A stretch of 64,000 nucleotides of DNA from a virus, in the IMG/VR virus record IMGVR_UViG_3300040786_000030, positions 120,281-184,280 of that record; one strand, 5' to 3'. A program made the position numbers and the translations under genes. Positions within the stretch are counted from its first letter, which is position 1, and each line of letters opens with the position of its first letter. A model generated the notes under the pieces. It was given only the letters and a program-made list of their open reading frames with translations, had not been told where the DNA came from and ran no database searches. Shown here one piece after another: positions 44,967 through 56,400 of this stretch.

Positions 44967-45336
44967 GGGGTACACGGTTTTGACTGGATATAGTCGTAAA
45001 TTGTAAGCATGTAGTGCTAAATTGAAGCACTTAAAACTATCTATTAAAACATTGAATTGACAACGATTATATCGTATCAGAAAATTTCCTTAATGAAAGC
45101 AGCGTGTCTGTTTTCGAAGGAGAGGTTGCATTTGCCTAACAATTGTAAATGGTAGTAAACTACCTATGGTGTTGAAACACCAAAAAATACGTTTATAACG
45201 TGTTTAAATATATATAGGTTGTTATAGATATGGAACCATAATCATCTTAAAAGGATTGCCAGTTTATGAATTGGATAAACATGTAGAAATCGTTGAAGAA
45301 TATCTTAGGACAGGGGTTCGAACTCCCTTACCTCCA
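44967..45336 (+). ncRNA. ssrA: tmRNA
   Basis: 5' GGGGTACACGGTTTTGAC; 3' GACAGGGGTTCGAACTCCCTTACCTCCA; tag ORF 45059-45139 DNDYIVSENFLNESSVSVFEGEVAFA*; GCATGTAG/ACATGTAG pk-type motifs; promoter TATCTTTG near 44898. Confidence 0.85.
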
Positions 45337-45431
45337 AATTATCAAAATTAACTCACCTCCACGTGGTGATAATTGGAAACAGATAAAGCTGGCAAAGAAG
45401 TTAATAAAAGTGGAGATATTCGGTTTTCTAA

Positions 45432-47274: not shown

Positions 47275-47300
47275 CAACGTTGGAGAACATAAACTCATAT

Positions 47301-47367
47301 GGGGAAGTCGTCTAAGATTAAGAACCACCATTAGGTGGTGATAATGGTTCAAGTCCATTCTTCCTTA
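47301..47367 (+). tRNA. tRNA-like RNA with a 4-nt loop in place of the anticodon loop
   Basis: GGGGAAG/CTTCCTT acceptor, AATGG-TTCAAGT-CCATT T arm, ACCACC-ATTA-GGTGGT arm. Confidence 0.6.
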
Positions 47368-47576: not shown

Positions 47577-48255
47577 ATGAAAACAATTCATTTAGAAATC
47601 AGAGATGGTAACGGTGGGTCCGATGCAAAGCTATTAGTAACACAAATGCAAGACATTTACACTAAAACAGCTAAAATTAACAATCTAGAATGTTCAATAG
47701 TTGACGTTAGAGATGGTTTTGTTCATCTATGTCTTTAGCGGTTCTGACCCAAAAAAATATTTAATAATGAACAAGGTGTGCATTCTTGGCATCGAGTCCC
47801 ACCAACAGAAAAAAAAAGGTAGAGTTCATACAAGCTCCATAACAGTTGTTATTTTAGAAGATAATAACTATAAAGAGAAAAACCTTTCAACTAATGAAGT
47901 TAAAATCGAAACAACTAGAGGTCAAGGTCCAGGTGGTCAGCATCGGAATACCACAGATTCAACGGTTGTAATAACTCATGAATCCACAGGTATCAAAGTT
48001 GTTAGGAATGGAAGATGTCAACATAAGAACAAAGCTGAGGCTTTAATTGAATTAACCAAAAGAGTTAATGAATTTTATAGATGTGGACATAATTCTATCG
48101 ACATTGAACATCGAAGAGGTCAGATAGGTAATGGTGAAAGAAGTGATAAACGAAGAACATATCGTGTAAAAGATAATTCAGTCAGTGACCATATAACAAA
48201 CAAAACAGCGTCACTAAAAGATATACTTAGAGGTAAAATAGAATTATTATCATAA
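47577..48255 (+). CDS. RF1-like class I peptide chain release factor (domains 2-4 only), with a candidate programmed +1 frameshift
   Basis: LEIRDGNGGSDA; EQGVH.WHRVPPTEKKGRVHTS (RF1-type PxT); GPGGQHRNTTDS; GERSDKRRTY; CTT TAG C at 47733-47739. Confidence 0.85.
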
Positions 48256-48720
48256 TTAAATTCCCCAATTGGGGAATTTTTTATTTAAAAAGTTAGAATA
48301 TTTAAATAAATAAATGTATCTTTGCTTTATGATAAATATGTTATAGATATGGGTATGTTTGATTTTTTAATAAATAGTAATAAAAAGCTAAGGTTGGTAT
48401 AGAATATATCTATCTATCAAATACAGCTTGGGTAGGTGGACTGAAAACCAGTCAAATATGGGTCAATTATGGTAGATGTTATTAAACTACCTAATGATTC
48501 TTTTGAGTTTACCGATAAATTGAGTGGAATTAGATATACAACTAATTATGGGTGGTCTTTAGCTGAAAACACACCAGAGAATATAATGAGTATTAATGAT
48601 TATTTAGTATCTAATGCTAAATTAGAAATATTAGAAAGAAGTACAAGATTATTACGTAAGAAAATAAATGACTTAAATGGTCCTAGTAAAATAAATAATA
48701 ACGATTTAAAATAGAAAAAT

Positions 48721-49232
48721 ATGAATAATAATAAATTTCCTAAATTACTCTTGGTTGGAAATATGAGACATGGGAAAGATTCAATGGCTGAAATACTAGG
48801 TGAAAATTTTGGTTTAAAATTTAAATCGTCATCACAAGCTGCTGCTGATATTTTATATATGATAAATTGAAGGTTAAGTATGGTTATAAAACATCTGAAG
48901 AATGTTTTGAAGACCGAGTAAACCATAGAAGTGAATGGTATGATATGATATGTGAATATAATTTAAATGATAAGGCTAAATTAGCTAAGGGTATTTTAGA
49001 AATCACTGATTGTTATGTTGGAATGAGGGATAGAAATGAAATAAGCGAGTGTATTAATCAAGGGTTATTTGATTTAATTGTTTGGGTCGATGCTAGTGAT
49101 AGATTACCGTTAGAGGATAGTTCATCGTTTAATATTGATAAAGCATGTGCTGATGTTATATTAGATAATAATGGTACTTATGAACAATTTGTTGAGCGTG
49201 TTATTAGGTTTGGTAAAGTTTTAATAAAATAA
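48721..49232 (+). CDS. P-loop kinase, dNMP-kinase-like (frameshifted)
   Basis: LLLVGNMRHGKDSMAE Walker A; YVGMRDRNE; ILDNNGT. Confidence 0.65.
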
Positions 49233-49800
49233 TTATGGCATATATAAGTAATGTTGAATACGAAAATATAAAAATGGTGCTATGGATGGTACCAAGGAAA
49301 ACCCAGTTATTGGGAGATTTGATAAAACTATAAATTAGCTCTATATTTAGGTTACAAATTAAAATGGGATTATGATTATAGTTATAATAATTCAATTAAT
49401 GGTTATTTTCATGTAATAGAACCAATGTTTAAAAAAATCATATAATAGGTTTGACTTTGAATACGTGTCTGATGATACAATTAATTATACTTGGGATTTC
49501 ATCATGGTAGAGGTTCTGCCTAAAATTAAAGAAGATGGTCTTTACGATGATACTATGAGTAAATCGTTAAATGATTTAGATTTAGTATCTCTATTTAATG
49601 CTATTATGGTAGTTATAAATAAAAAATATATTTAATATTTACTTGTATATTTAAAATATAGTTGTATATTTGCACAAGATAAATGAGGTGGTAACTTTTA
49701 CTAGGATAAAAATCGTTGAAGCTAATAAGACAATTAGGTTGGTAAACAATACGTTGGGAGCTAATAGTTGAGAAAATAAAGCGGTAATAAATAACCAAAT

Positions 49801-49872
49801 GGTCTATTGGTCGAGTGGTAAGATAGTAGTCTCTAAAACTAAAGATGGTGGGTTCGAGCCCCACATAGACTA
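49801..49872 (+). tRNA. amber suppressor tRNA (anticodon CTA)
   Basis: GGTCTAT/ATAGACT acceptor, D arm, TAGT-CTCTAAA-ACTA (CTA at 49833-49835), GTGGG-TTCGAGC-CCCAC. Confidence 0.85.
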
Positions 49873-49885
49873 CAAAAAATAAGAT

Positions 49886-49956
49886 TCCGTGTTGTGGGTA
49901 ACGGCAACTTAACCTCGAAAGCAGGGGTGATTCTGGTTCGAATCCAGAGCACGGTA
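49886..49956 (+). tRNA. tRNA-like RNA with atypical anticodon loop (GAAAGCA)
   Basis: CCGTGT/GCACGG acceptor, TCTGG-TTCGAAT-CCAGA T arm; loop lacks U33. Confidence 0.55.
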
Positions 49957-50019
49957 CAAATTAACTTGACTTTTAATTAAATGTCATATATTTATTATTA
50001 ACAAACAAAACAATAAAAA

Positions 50020-50368
50020 ATGAAGTAGGTAAACGAAAAATTAAGGGTAGTTACAAGACGAGATTTAAATCTTGCACATCAAGCAGTTCAATCTGGACAT
50101 GCAGCTATTGATTTTCAACATGAACACTTAGTTGAAGCAAAACAATGGCAAACACAATCAAATTATTTAGCATTTTTAACGGTAAACGATGAACCAGAAT
50201 TAATTAAATTAATTTCTAAGGCAATACTAATTGGTATAAAGCACACTATTTTTTAGAGAACCAGATATAGGTAATCAAATAACAGCTGTAGCGTTTGAAC
50301 CAAGTGATTTATCTAGGAAATTAACTAGTTCATGTAGTTTATTAGGGAAGGAGTTATCCAATGCTTAA
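50020..50368 (+). CDS. Pth2-like peptidyl-tRNA hydrolase with in-frame TAG at codon 3
   Basis: ATG AAG TAG, then KLRVVTRRDL..AHQAVQSGHAA...FREPDIGNQITAVA; one extra T near 50254. Confidence 0.7.
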
Positions 50369-50620
50369 TATATCAATACAAAAGAACTGATATTATTTTA
50401 CACTTTAATAAAATGCATTTACAAGATGCTAACATCCCAATGTGGGTAATTAAAGCTAAGGTCAGACATATTATGTAAATCATGTTGATATGGATTCTGG
50501 AATTGGTTTTCAACAAAAGAAACACCAGATAATCCATCAACAAAGGGTTCATTAAAATTTAAAGGTAAGTTAGATATAACTGATGAAAATAATACCGTAA
50601 ACGCAAGGATTTACGGTTAA
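50361..50620 (+). CDS. hypothetical protein (frameshifted)
   Basis: FHFNK..IPMWVIKAKG..YYVNHVD..STKETPDNPSTKGSLKFKG. Confidence 0.45.
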
Positions 50621-50625
50621 AACAA

Positions 50626-50694
50626 GGCGAGGTAATCAAATGGTAGGTACAGTTTTGAAAGACTGGTATGTTGGTTCGAATCCAGCCCTCGCCT
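50626..50694 (+). tRNA. tRNA of undetermined identity (6-nt loop TTGAAA)
   Basis: GGCGAGG/CCTCGCC acceptor, CAGTT/GACTG stem, canonical T arm; possible homopolymer deletion. Confidence 0.6.
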
Positions 50695-50730
50695 CTGATA
50701 ATAATAATAATAATTTAAAAAATAGAAACT

Positions 50731-50757
50731 ATGAAATAGATACGAAAACCACCTTAA
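50731..50757 (+). other. mini-ORF M-K-amber-I-R-K-P-P-ochre
   Basis: ATG AAA TAG ATA CGA AAA CCA CCT TAA after an A-rich initiation region. Confidence 0.5.
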
Positions 50758-50829
50758 GTTTTATTACTTTACATGACTCGGATATTCAGTTATCAATAAA
50801 ATAAAATTATAAAACTTAAAAAAAACAAA

Positions 50830-51199
50830 ATGAAAACACAAGAACAAAAAATGAAAGAAGCAAAAATTATCTTACTACGTCAGCACAACATTTATTTATC
50901 GTTAATGATAAATTTATTTTAAACTTATAGAATTTGAAGTAGATGGTAAATTACATTATGCTAAATTAATGGTTAACCCACAAAGTGTGACAATTACAAA
51001 TATTGTTACGACTTGGTATAAGCAGAGTTATAAACAAGATTTGTTTCCACAATATTTAAAAAAAAATCGATACCTCATTTTAAAAAAAATGAAAGAAATT
51101 ATAGAATTAGTTAAACGTGATATTAGTTTAACTGATAATAAAGTTTTAATTGAAAAGATTAAATTATTAGCCAACAAATTTGAAATTGTAAAACAATAA
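50830..51199 (+). CDS. hypothetical protein (frameshifted)
   Basis: ATG at 50830, fragment 50969-51199, terminator at about 51211-51232. Confidence 0.4.
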
Positions 51200-51264
51200 A
51201 ATAATAAATTAAAGGACCTTATGGTCCTTTTTTATTTATCTGTATAATTATAAATAAAAATAAG

Positions 51265-55197: not shown

Positions 55198-55224
55198 TCA
55201 ATAATTTAGTAATATCTTTGTTGC

Positions 55225-56400
55225 ATGAAAAATAAGATAGAACAAATATTAGGTGAAGGATTAGTTATTGGTAAACGAATTAAATTTGATTTATCAATAC
55301 CTGAAGATATTAGTGAGTTAAACCATATCTTTAAAAGAAATGGTTTTGAACTATTTATTGTTGGTGGTGCTATACGTGATGCTTTATTAGGTAAATCACC
55401 AAAAGATTACGATTTAGCTACCAATGCTTTACCTGACAAGGTTGAAGAAATGATGAATACAAACAACATTAGAACTATAGCTACTGGTAAAGCATTTGGT
55501 GTTATTAATGTATTTACCAACCAAGGGGAATACGAAATAGCAACCTTTAGACATGATATTGGCTCTGATGGTAGAAGACCAGATAGTGTTAAATTTACTA
55601 ATATTGAAGGGATGTTAAAAGACGGACCTCACTATCAATGCACTTTTACGATATTGAGAAAGGTGAGATTGTTGACCTTGTTGGTGGTATTAATGATATT
55701 AAAATGGTGTTGTTAGAACGGTTGGTTTAGCTGAAGATAGATTTGGTGAAGATAGACTTCGTATTCTTAGAGCAATTAGATTTGCTGCTAGGTTTGGAAG
55801 TGAATTAGAGACAAAACTGATATAGCGTTACAAAAAAATGCAAATCTTGAAGGTATTTCCAGTGAACGTATTAGAGATGAATTCATCAAGGGTATTAAAT
55901 CGGCTAAATCAACATCAGCTTTTTTAATGTTGAATGATAAATACGAATTGTTTGATTGGATATTCCCAGACTTAAAATTGTCAAGAGTATGTTTAATAGA
56001 GGTGATGATTATATGTTTAATGATTACTTAGTTGTTTTAGCTAGGTTATTAAAAAACAATACCGTTGAAACTATTAGAGAAAAACTAAATATTTTAAGTT
56101 ATTCTACTACAGAAATTAAAGGTATTATATTCTTAGTTACGTTATTAAAATTAGATTCTGATAATGCGTATTCCTGAAAAATCCCATTTAAAATCTGGTA
56201 TTAGTAATAACCAAATTAGAGATTTTGGTTCAAGTGAAGGTATTCCATCTCAATTGCTAGATGCTTTTGAGGAATTTACATTAACAGTTTCTGGGTCAGA
56301 AATTATGTTTGATTTTAATTTAAAGCCTGGTAAAATGTGGGTGAATTGATGCAAAAAATAGAAACAGAAAACTTTAACAAAATATTAAAACCTTATCTAG
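55225..56400 (+). CDS. CCA-adding enzyme / poly(A) polymerase family nucleotidyltransferase (frameshifted)
   Basis: FIVGGAIRDALLGKSPKDYDLATNA, EIATFR, DLTINA, RFGEDRLRILRAIRF, ISSERIRDE. Confidence 0.9.

Follow-up and report, generated by a model that had tools for sequence, protein, structure and literature searches.

The module at 47577..50757 of a 64,000-nt window (the whole stretch of DNA analysed, from the record IMGVR_UViG_3300040786_000030) holds what we lean slightly towards reading as two neighbouring stop-gated devices through which slow termination would turn on genes for translation rescue (Table 1). Slow termination is likely reported by competition between a suppressor tRNA and RF1. 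The original prediction had placed an RF1-like gene, a CUA tRNA, a Pth2-like gene and an amber mini-ORF in a single UAG-centred control module; all four elements proved real, but they form two devices, not one circuit. The phage is a T4-like jumbo phage, probably with a Bacteroidota host. SD-like sites are found in 0.4-5% of ORFs, and TTG-N18-21-TAnnTTTG, after the Bacteroidota promoter consensus TTG...TAnnTTTG, is enriched over control spacings; a sigma-70 promoter scan gave a chance-level result (30 vs 34), and the portal family PF04860 was not found.

Table 1. Positions of the elements of both devices in the window
Feature	Position	Strand	Remarks
Domain-1-less RF1-like gene, ATG 47577	47577..48255	+	~225 aa if shifted once; PPT and GGQ; homopolymer errors near 47750 and 47809
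CTT TAG C, predicted +1 shifty stop (TGT CTT TAG C, 47730-47739)	47733..47739	+	codon 53-54; no upstream SD-like element
Terminator-like hairpin and U run, end of RF unit	48258..48279	+	
Bacteroidota-type promoter-like site TTG-N19-TAnnTTTG, upstream of tRNA-CUA	49643..49672	+	pattern match
tRNA, CUA anticodon (CTA), ordinary cloverleaf, A73	49801..49873	+	ARAGORN; Rfam tRNA 58.1 bits
ATATTTAT motif, possible phage promoter, before pth	49988..49995	+	
Pth2-like gene, ATG AAG TAG GTA; TAG 50026-50028	50020..50368	+	assembly error (one T too many) near 50253
Conserved 87-aa ORF between pth and tRNA-Cys position	50361..50620	+	broken by indels here
tRNA, anticodon loop odd; relatives have tRNA-Cys(GCA) here	50626..50695	+	
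Amber-gated leader ORF, MK-stop-IRK(K)PP-stop; TAG 50737-50739	50731..50757	+	
Predicted stem; arms 50754-50764 (at the leader stop) and 50809-50819 (A-rich, where the next gene initiates)	50754..50819	+	
123-aa gene, predicted leader target	50830..51199	+	
Terminator-like hairpin closing amber operon	51211..51230	+	

A suppressor-type tRNA travels with an amber-gated Pth2-like gene

Judged by its sequence, the tRNA-CUA is of the amber-suppressor type and is not a tRNA-Pyl. A tRNA-Pyl has a diagnostic cloverleaf, which this molecule lacks: it has a 5-bp anticodon stem, GG in the D-loop, TTCG in the T-loop and A73. Together with the absence of PylS (PylRS) from 5 of 5 phage records, this ordinary cloverleaf leads us to reject a tRNA-Pyl identity. 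Acceptor stems vary freely among relatives, and folding the tRNA over the whole strand gave an uninformative z of -0.29. As the original prediction had implied, the tRNA keeps company with pth and the leader: it lies within 5 kb of the Pth2-like gene at 56 of 69 loci, and in 5 of 5 genome records it immediately precedes pth. It is also near 15 of the 20 pth genes that have their own Met, so the linkage is wider than the gating.

That UAG decoding gates Pth is borne out at the level of sequence conservation, since a start of the form ATG-(1-3 codons)-TAG occurs in 47 of 69 unique phage Pth2-like loci and TAA or TGA occurs in the same place in none. Four more genes, among the 20 with their own Met, have an internal TAG, at four different positions and with intact code-11 genes around. 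The base 3' of the gate TAG is a purine in 47/47 cases, against 50/106 true TAG stops; a purine in this position favours suppression. Start-TAG-pth also stands next to tRNA-CUA in five cultured mycobacteriophages of cluster C, the cluster of Catera and Myrna, whose pth transcript is predicted to begin, leaderless, at the RTG in front of the TAG; huge-phage GenBank records carry the gates too.

Homology to Pth2 is supported by Pfam (PTH2, 25.6 against a cut-off of 23) and by a PDB Pth2 match (E 3e-8), and the protein falls short of the NCBIfam Pth2 equivalog cut-off (27 vs 82-126 bits). Compared with archaeal Pth2, the GK segment is missing and EPD stands in place of DAG; as both segments are catalytic in Pth2, hydrolase activity is uncertain.

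The mini-ORF resembles a gated arrest-peptide leader

For the gene that follows it, the mini-ORF looks like an attenuator of the arrest-peptide kind, a role absent from the original prediction. Its consensus, M-x-TAG…R/K-x-P-P/T-stop, was found in 35 of 75 loci, against 2 with TAA and 1 with TGA under the same filter, which gave no leader in 40 of the 75; gating of the leader by UAG thus holds up as predicted. The peptide itself needs a correction: once polished, it is MK-stop-IRKKPP-stop, not MK-stop-IRKPP-stop. Leaders end in RGPT, RAPP, RAPT, KAPP or other xxPP forms (KKPP in the window), RAPP-like or Pro-stop endings that resemble the RAPP/RGPP and Bacteroidota Pro-stop arrest motifs described in the accessible text of PMC10987492 and PMC12992588. 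According to the latter, RAPP alone is insufficient for arrest without upstream residues, and the leaders here have only 7-11 residues.

Two tests of the predicted stem gave differing results. Across 33 loci, arms from the same locus paired at -9.3 kcal/mol versus -4.7 for swapped arms (0 of 10,000 permutations), a swap test inflated by kinship. An arm scored best with its own partner at only 13 of 33 loci, and pairing in the region tested is weak at several. Covariation was not significant in a 17-sequence alignment (83% paired vs 26-65% when slid, a value reached by 71 of 500 shuffles). The presumed target has 12 homologues without assigned names and a model with pLDDT 89.5, whose structure matched one uncharacterized phage protein; there was no PHROG match, no Atlas lead and no PDB match at E<=0.001.

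A predicted stop gate in the release-factor-like gene is not amber-specific

On sequence grounds the RF1-like gene is stop-gated, not amber-specific. HRVPPT and GGQ, the PxT and GGQ motifs of RF1, are encoded in the +1 frame. The N-terminal domain 1 is missing: the match begins at PCRF position 100 (full prfA is ~355 aa), and an intact member of the family, when aligned with E. coli RF1, covers residues 112-340. Among the best 120 matches, some 40 proteins measure 205-250 aa. Profile scores were 153 bits for prfA, 83 for prfB and 58 for prfH. At a position occupied by Gln in 133 of the 138 other members scored, the window has His; this position, like PxT and GGQ, has a recognized functional role in release factors.

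We surveyed homologues on viral and genome contigs, keeping the best 80 of 440 viral and the best 80 of 528 genome matches. Stop gates occur at 78 of the 82 unique viral loci examined and at 63 of the 80 from genome contigs. CTT-TAG, CTT-TGA and in-frame TGA swap among relatives, in phages and bacteria alike, and TGA is commoner than TAG. In-frame stops fall in six alignment columns, and 16 of the viral loci that have them carry two. Gate type switches repeatedly within the phage clade; because full-length RF1 rows are not monophyletic in this tree and many supports are low, we claim no order of events. Among cultured bacteria, Archangium gephyra has CTT TAG C, and Minicystis rosea and Thiobacillus denitrificans have CTT TGA C. 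An SD-like element precedes the shift site at 47/68 TGA sites and 17/35 TAG sites, and at 0/11 low-GC TAG sites.

These counts do not support the amber circuit to which the RF gene had been assigned. The expectation that TAG would be conserved at all three coding sites and co-occur with tRNA-CUA held for pth and the leader and failed for the RF: besides the preference for TGA, a tRNA-CUA lies within 6 kb of the RF gene at 12 of 31 in-frame TGA loci, 5 of 35 CTT-TAG loci (6 with a divergent tRNA) and 0 of 68 CTT-TGA loci, and between the two lie, in this phage, a terminator-like hairpin and three unrelated genes. The PPT-type motif is retained whatever the gate codon, which for most members rules out simple autoregulation at UAG. 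Nor is there support for the proposal that RF is made when the suppressor is present, since the TAG, if read as sense, leads to a TGA two codons further on; the suppressor would therefore reduce RF yield, opposing the +1 shift. Two other accounts of the TGA gates were rejected. A candidate opal suppressor, tRNA-TCA in relative G001, reads as a misfolded tRNA-Glu(TTC), and decoding of TGA simply as Trp or Cys does not fit columns 33, 38 and 53, which lack Trp in intact members.

A model for the two devices and its rivals

The sequences, their conservation, the identity of the stop codons, their linkage and the code-11 background are observed here; from them we infer tRNA charging, read-through, frameshift, stall, stem switch, enzyme activities and trigger, as follows. 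In device 1 (49.6-51.2 kb), host RF1 and the tRNA-CUA would vie for two UAGs placed there for the purpose. Read-through at pth codon 3 would yield the Pth2-like protein, and termination there would leave only a dipeptide minigene. Read-through of the leader would bring the ribosome to Pro-Pro-stop; a stall is predicted there, with the ribosome masking the 5' arm of the stem and so freeing the initiation region of the 123-aa gene. In device 2 (47.6-48.3 kb), the domain-1-less RF1-like factor would come only from ribosomes that pause at the stop and slip +1 on CUU-U, as in prfB; some relatives use a leaky in-frame UGA instead. The trigger may be an RF shortage after host shut-off or an attack on translation.

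The UAG gates might instead keep time, awaiting the processing and charging of the phage suppressor in a miniature of late control in recoded phages, with the RF1 level mattering little. The tRNA-CUA has a host-type promoter-like site and pth a separate ATATTTAT motif, and suppressor-timed expression has been proposed by Borges et al. (10.1101/2021.08.26.457843). Yet the gated genes are of the translation-rescue kind, not structural or lysis genes, capsid frames are stop-free, the tRNA and its targets are adjacent, and the RF gate would work without a suppressor, all of which makes this reading unlikely. We give still less credence to leaky stops that sense nothing and simply hold potentially toxic factors at a few percent. 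Such a fixed limit would accommodate any stop at six positions of RF, and the loci with two; overexpressed RF2 is toxic in B. subtilis (PMC12421855). A weak start would suffice for it, however, without a dedicated tRNA, the pth and leader gates are strictly TAG, and a stall-like leader with a stem is elaborate for a constant leak.

Termination at the UAG followed by re-initiation at the next codon (often AUU; GUG in mycobacteriophages) would dispense with read-through. The codon after the TAG is ATT in 26 of the 47 gated pth genes, and mycobacteriophage annotations begin at the GTG after the TAG, with an SD-like sequence 7 nt before. The other 21 of 47 have GTA, ATA, GTT, AGC, ACG, ACA, ATC, AAT or AAC, however, four genes have the TAG mid-gene, and the strict TAG and the tRNA are left unexplained; we regard this as very improbable.

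TAG remains a true stop in the relatives

The window's own record is too indel-rich for a test of the genetic code, which therefore rests on four polished relatives. All use code 11 genome-wide, with coding densities of 78-86%. Reading TAG as sense raised density by 1-5 points, similar to the TGA control, and gave no gain in long ORFs, the pattern of density and long-ORF gain that would mark code 15 being absent; density thus rules out genome-wide recoding of TAG or TGA in these four, in agreement with the original prediction. Capsid frames are open, without internal stops. True TAG stops end 5-11% of ORFs, and the suppressor would have access to these as well. Among 1,751 open frames with 100 codons or more, only 14 are preceded by ATG-n-stop and lack an early Met; 3 of these (among 285 TAG-preceded frames) have TAG, and all 3 are the pth gene. 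Across five records, we found no convincing amber-start-gated gene beyond pth and the leader, with one candidate in relative G004 left out.

The further suggestion of a precursor state to amber recoding found no evidence in the four relatives. A precursor or relic would fit the low GC, rare TAG and resident suppressor, the route proposed by Borges et al. (10.1101/2021.08.26.457843), and a Pth2 relative occurs in Lak phages too. Code 11 throughout the relatives without long-ORF gain, gating of the same two ORFs across divergent phages, and an RF1-type factor, which would work against amber recoding, nevertheless make either very improbable indeed.

The elements survive an error-prone record

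Against the sister L001, the record shows only 15 mismatches and 71 gap openings across 9,580 columns, so that a lone frameshift in it is meaningless. Comparison with sisters L001 and L002 corrected three homopolymer indels, two of them in the RF gene and the third in pth. CTT TAG C, ATG AAG TAG, the CTA anticodon (also called by ARAGORN) and the leader TAG are all kept in both sisters. A depth-75 short-read contig over 47506-49825, from a run that may be the window's source sample, has both RF homopolymer fixes among the indel rows listed, retains CTT TAG C and, in the rows listed, shows no substitutions at the shift site, anticodon or leader; the pth start (49920-50060) is outside its coverage. 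A sequencing artefact or pseudogenes, which the record's ~7 indels/kb might suggest, can be set aside with near certainty, since the same sites recur in the sisters, the short-read contig and dozens of divergent phages with frames otherwise intact; assembly error is ruled out by the sisters and that contig.

Comparison with known systems

Device 2 most resembles the prfB (RF2) +1 frameshift, SD-N3-CUU-UGA-C, sharing a CUU-U slippery codon with a stop and C behind it, near the beginning of a class I RF gene, and a +1 ORF2. Here, however, the stop is UAG, the product is PxT-type rather than an RF2 (SPF), domain 1 is missing, and no SD lies 3 nt upstream. The accessible part of a prfB motif survey reports 0 TAG in 8,164 (PMC12421855), and an SD-less CUU-UGA shift works at 5-12% in Flavobacterium (PMC10798248). 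In-frame UGA gating, stated as unseen in bacterial RF genes in the accessible text of PMC5009743, is what the RF of some relatives uses. The rescue pair PrfH/RFH-RtcB (PMC6514570, PMC12829566) likewise has a class I RF homologue without the N-terminal domain, but our gene has PPT, is stop-gated and matches prfH (TIGR03072) at 58 against a cut-off of 166.65, over a C-terminal piece only. RtcB was found in 0 of 5 phage records (three incomplete) and among none of 29 neighbour ORFs of 8 loci, and with the missed cut-off this rejects a PrfH/RtcB identity.

Suppressor modules of recoded phages (10.1101/2021.08.26.457843, PMC13037316) share the phage tRNA-CUA, phage RF and in-frame TAG; here the code is 11 and only two ORFs were found TAG-start-gated. 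Jade phages are reported to keep their code-change genes in standard code; in the present phage, by contrast, it is the rescue genes themselves that carry the interruption. SecM, ApdA/P and uA_NSP-stop (PMC10987492, PMC12992588) share a C-terminal R-x-P-P or Pro-stop before a predicted sequestered initiation region; the leaders here have no localization signal, are shorter, and would be released by an upstream amber codon, not by pulling force. The accessible text of PMC12992588 does not mention "phage". Inventories of jumbo-phage Pth2, RF and tmRNA (PMC7824862, PMC7162821) list the same gene types, proposed to act against translation attacks, and in their accessible parts mention neither stop gating nor a tRNA-CUA link. 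Giant-virus eRF1, which needs read-through and frameshift (PMC5009743), is also a viral RF gated by recoding, but it is eukaryotic, with no suppressor, Pth or leader module described in the accessible text. We did not find the combined arrangement in the published literature, though supplements of the cited papers may list such genes.

Implications

Beyond the two slow-termination devices, we tentatively entertain a private amber regulon in standard-code phages across several host phyla. In it, the suppressor tRNA would turn RF1 shortage into a signal for a Pth2-like enzyme and, via the shortest known stop-gated arrest peptide, for one of four unrelated small counter-defence protein families, and the undescribed, widespread domain-1-less RF1 family would be a stop-agnostic emergency terminator for any termination failure.

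If true, our reading would give a role to amber-suppressor tRNAs, often labelled tRNA-Pyl, in non-recoded phages. It would also supply the UAG and read-through counterparts of RF2 autoregulation, reported unseen in the accessible text of a review (PMC5009743) and a survey (PMC12421855). Gene callers probably overlook gated genes or place their starts wrongly. Test systems at hand are the cluster C mycobacteriophages, with pth and tRNA-CUA, and the cultured bacteria, and release-factor availability may be a front in the conflict between phage and host.

A UAG-centred module in the window and its relatives

All four UAG-related elements of the original prediction are present in the window: an RF1-like gene interrupted at CTT TAG C, a tRNA-CUA, a Pth2-like gene (pth) opening ATG AAG TAG, and an amber mini-ORF, or leader, upstream of a small-protein gene. 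The source record, of which the window spans 120281-184280, is a 193 kb virus of 29% GC (87% complete by CheckV); like its four polished relatives (G001-G004), it has a capsid gene of the T4-like Gp23 type. It is unpolished, with 15 mismatches but 71 gap openings across 9,580 columns against the sister contig L001. Both sister contigs (L001, L002) mend homopolymer errors yet retain each UAG and the anticodon. At the RF site a short-read contig also matches; it stops short of the pth start and is possibly not independent of the source. The module is real and conserved across relatives.

The claim that UAG is not recoded genome-wide also stands, as the standard code suffices in the four polished relatives. 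Their coding density is 78-86% under code 11; reading TAG as sense raises it by 1-5 points, much as the TGA control does, with long-ORF counts nearly unchanged. Of their 1,175 ORFs that reach 120 aa or more, 106 end in TAG. SD-like sites accompany just 0.4-5% of ORFs in these genomes, start regions are rich in A, and TTG-N18-21-TAnnTTTG occurs at 1.9-4 times the frequency of control spacings, in keeping with the Bacteroidota promoter consensus. Together, these features suggest a Bacteroidota host for the window phage.

Other elements observed in the window and in related loci
Location	Feature	Observation
Window 44967-45405	tmRNA (Rfam 49.9 bits)	Directly downstream, a match to an HDV-like ribozyme (46.2 bits) and an endonuclease gene
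Window ~47300-47365	tRNA-like cloverleaf	Very short anticodon arm; flanked by two tRNA-Met genes; uncalled by ARAGORN and Rfam
Window 49887-49955	tRNA-like element	Lies between tRNA-CUA and pth; called Leu(aag) by ARAGORN here, uncalled in the polished sister
Window 50626-50695	tRNA at tRNA-Cys position	TTTGAAA loop, the same in both sisters and thus not a sequencing error
L105 3524-4309	Stenotrophomonas phage RAS14 Pth2	Ungated; preceded in the fusion by a domain of 160 aa that bears an HD-like motif
G005:C1:51863-52258 and 55211-55654	RF-like matches	Both in the same genome, separated by 3 kb; internal TAA in the second

Pth and the leader carry UAG gates

The window protein is Pth2-like and lacks the GK segment. 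A scan with alignment A1 returned 126 viral loci, the best 80 of which gave 69 unique pth loci. Among these, 47 read ATG, one to three codons, TAG and then the ORF; none has TAA or TGA at this start gate, 20 have their own Met, and two could not be classed. Four of the 20 own-Met loci hold a single internal TAG, at differing positions, amid intact code-11 genes. The gate recurs in three huge-phage GenBank records and is absent from the Stenotrophomonas phage fusion. Prevotella Lak phage records H182 and H183 also encode a Pth2 relative.

Within the same sample, ARAGORN finds a tRNA-CUA within 5 kb of pth at 39/47 TAG-gated, 15/20 own-Met and 2/2 unclassed loci; it overlooked a divergent tRNA-CUA in G003. 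Two distinct tRNA-CUA genes lie near pth at L277, L281, L292, L318, L321, L324 and L103.

A counterpart occurs in mycobacteriophages. All five cluster C phages examined, from 206 matching Mycobacterium records, have RTG TAG GTG at pth with a tRNA-CUA directly downstream (Catera, Myrna, ScoobyDoobyDoo, Phabba and Cane17; L100, L101, L344-L346). A promoter-like TTGACA-N18/19-TANNNT lies 6-7 nt upstream of RTG, which suggests a leaderless transcript starting on RTG; annotations start at GTG. Annotators label the adjacent tRNA-CUA Arg, Ser, Pyl or OTHER.

Filtering for A-rich context, an early stop and Pro within the last three residues, we found TAG leaders at 35 of 75 loci; the same filter gives two TAA and one TGA. 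Their predicted read-through C-termini are RGPT, RAPP, RAPT, RPPN, KAPP, SRPP and alike. A stem predicted by folding joins the leader's final stop to the A-rich stretch immediately before the next ATG. Across 33 loci (dropping L276, almost identical to L270, and L295, which lacks a downstream ORF), stem arms pair at -9.3 kcal/mol with their own partner versus -4.7 when swapped, a value reached in 0 of 10,000 permutations; the own partner ranks first in 13 and in the top three in 21. In 17 aligned sequences the stem position is 83% paired, exceeding every slid control, and covariation does not go beyond shuffles (71/500 and 23/500 match it). The genes after the leader sort into four families of small proteins, unrelated to one another, plus a singleton; for the family represented in the window, neither an established name nor a fold match was found. 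Short TTGGACA / ATAGACA repeats, direct and inverted and variable in number, fill the stem's loop in L266, L269, L270, L273 and L283. Near the module, a tiny conserved minus-strand ORF, MKNKGCGCKPPK[KR]*, occurs in L004, L005, L011, L012 and L013; its L001 version is MKAQKDCGCKPPKK*.

The RF1-like gene carries a stop gate that is not amber-specific

The RF-like protein starts inside the PCRF domain, without domain 1, and is nearest prfA and remote from prfH.

Gates of RF-like genes
Gate	Viral loci (82 unique, including the best 80 of 440 matches and six GenBank loci)	Genome-contig loci (best 80 of 528)
CTT TGA	29	39
CTT TAG	19 (of which one has TGA as well and another an additional indel)	16
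CTT TAA	2	1
In-frame stop	28 (24 TGA only, 2 TAG, 2 both)	7 (TGA)
Intact	2	2
Full RF1		6
Unclassified	2	9

Part of the genome-contig set probably consists of misbinned phage contigs, with L113 holding a complete module. In cultured bacteria, gated short RF genes carry CTT TAG C (Archangium, L133), CTT TGA C (Minicystis, L130; Thiobacillus, L129; Achromobacter, L123) or in-frame TGA (a Cupriavidus plasmid, L188; Pararhizobium, L160); no neighbour genes common to these six loci were found.

In-frame stops of the family sit in six alignment columns. On a 149-row tree with low supports, gate labels need 38 changes versus at least 58 after shuffling, and TAG-shift and TGA forms are intermixed inside the phage clade. 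One inserted T is the chief difference between the window's CTT TAG C and the sisters' TGA CTA AGC. The RF gene had been proposed to belong to the amber switch and to be made when the suppressor is present; neither proposal is supported. At 18 RF loci a TAG-gated pth lies no more than 6 kb away; 12 of these loci use in-frame TGA and six the TAG shift. Decoding the window's RF TAG as sense closes the frame two codons on. Given that TAG-shift and TGA gates interchange even beside a TAG-gated pth, the RF gate is selected for being a stop, not for being amber.

Discussion

The kinds of device are individually known. Jumbo phages carry Pth2, RF and tmRNA (PMC7824862, PMC7162821), PrfH-RtcB has been treated (PMC6514570), a +1 shift without SD is reported (PMC10798248), and arrest motifs are described (PMC10987492, PMC12992588), RAPP by itself being insufficient. 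TAG is absent among 8,164 prfB motifs (PMC12421855), and an in-frame-stop counterpart and a UAG/RF1 counterpart are called unknown, with a giant-virus case mentioned (PMC5009743). Suppressor tRNAs and code-change modules are described for recoded phages (PMC13037316; Borges et al.). In the literature searched, which covered few subscription papers, we found neither the gates nor their assembly described.

The gates themselves are observed; how they act we infer. On balance, we lean towards a model in which they sense slow termination and switch on rescue-type genes. UAG read-through would depend on the phage tRNA, and its level would be set by how well that tRNA competes against RF1. No tRNA would be required for the CUU-UAG shift or for leaky UGA, which would likewise increase when termination is slow. 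Alternatively, the gates might time expression, which we consider unlikely, or fix a dose, which is less probable still. Re-initiation after UAG seems very improbable, and a relic of recoding, in genomes for which the standard code suffices, marginally more so. A sequencing artefact can practically be set aside, with each UAG kept in the sister contigs. Sensing of slow termination is favoured because one output would hydrolyse peptidyl-tRNA on the ribosome and the other off it, the two activities that a cell would need when its termination fails.
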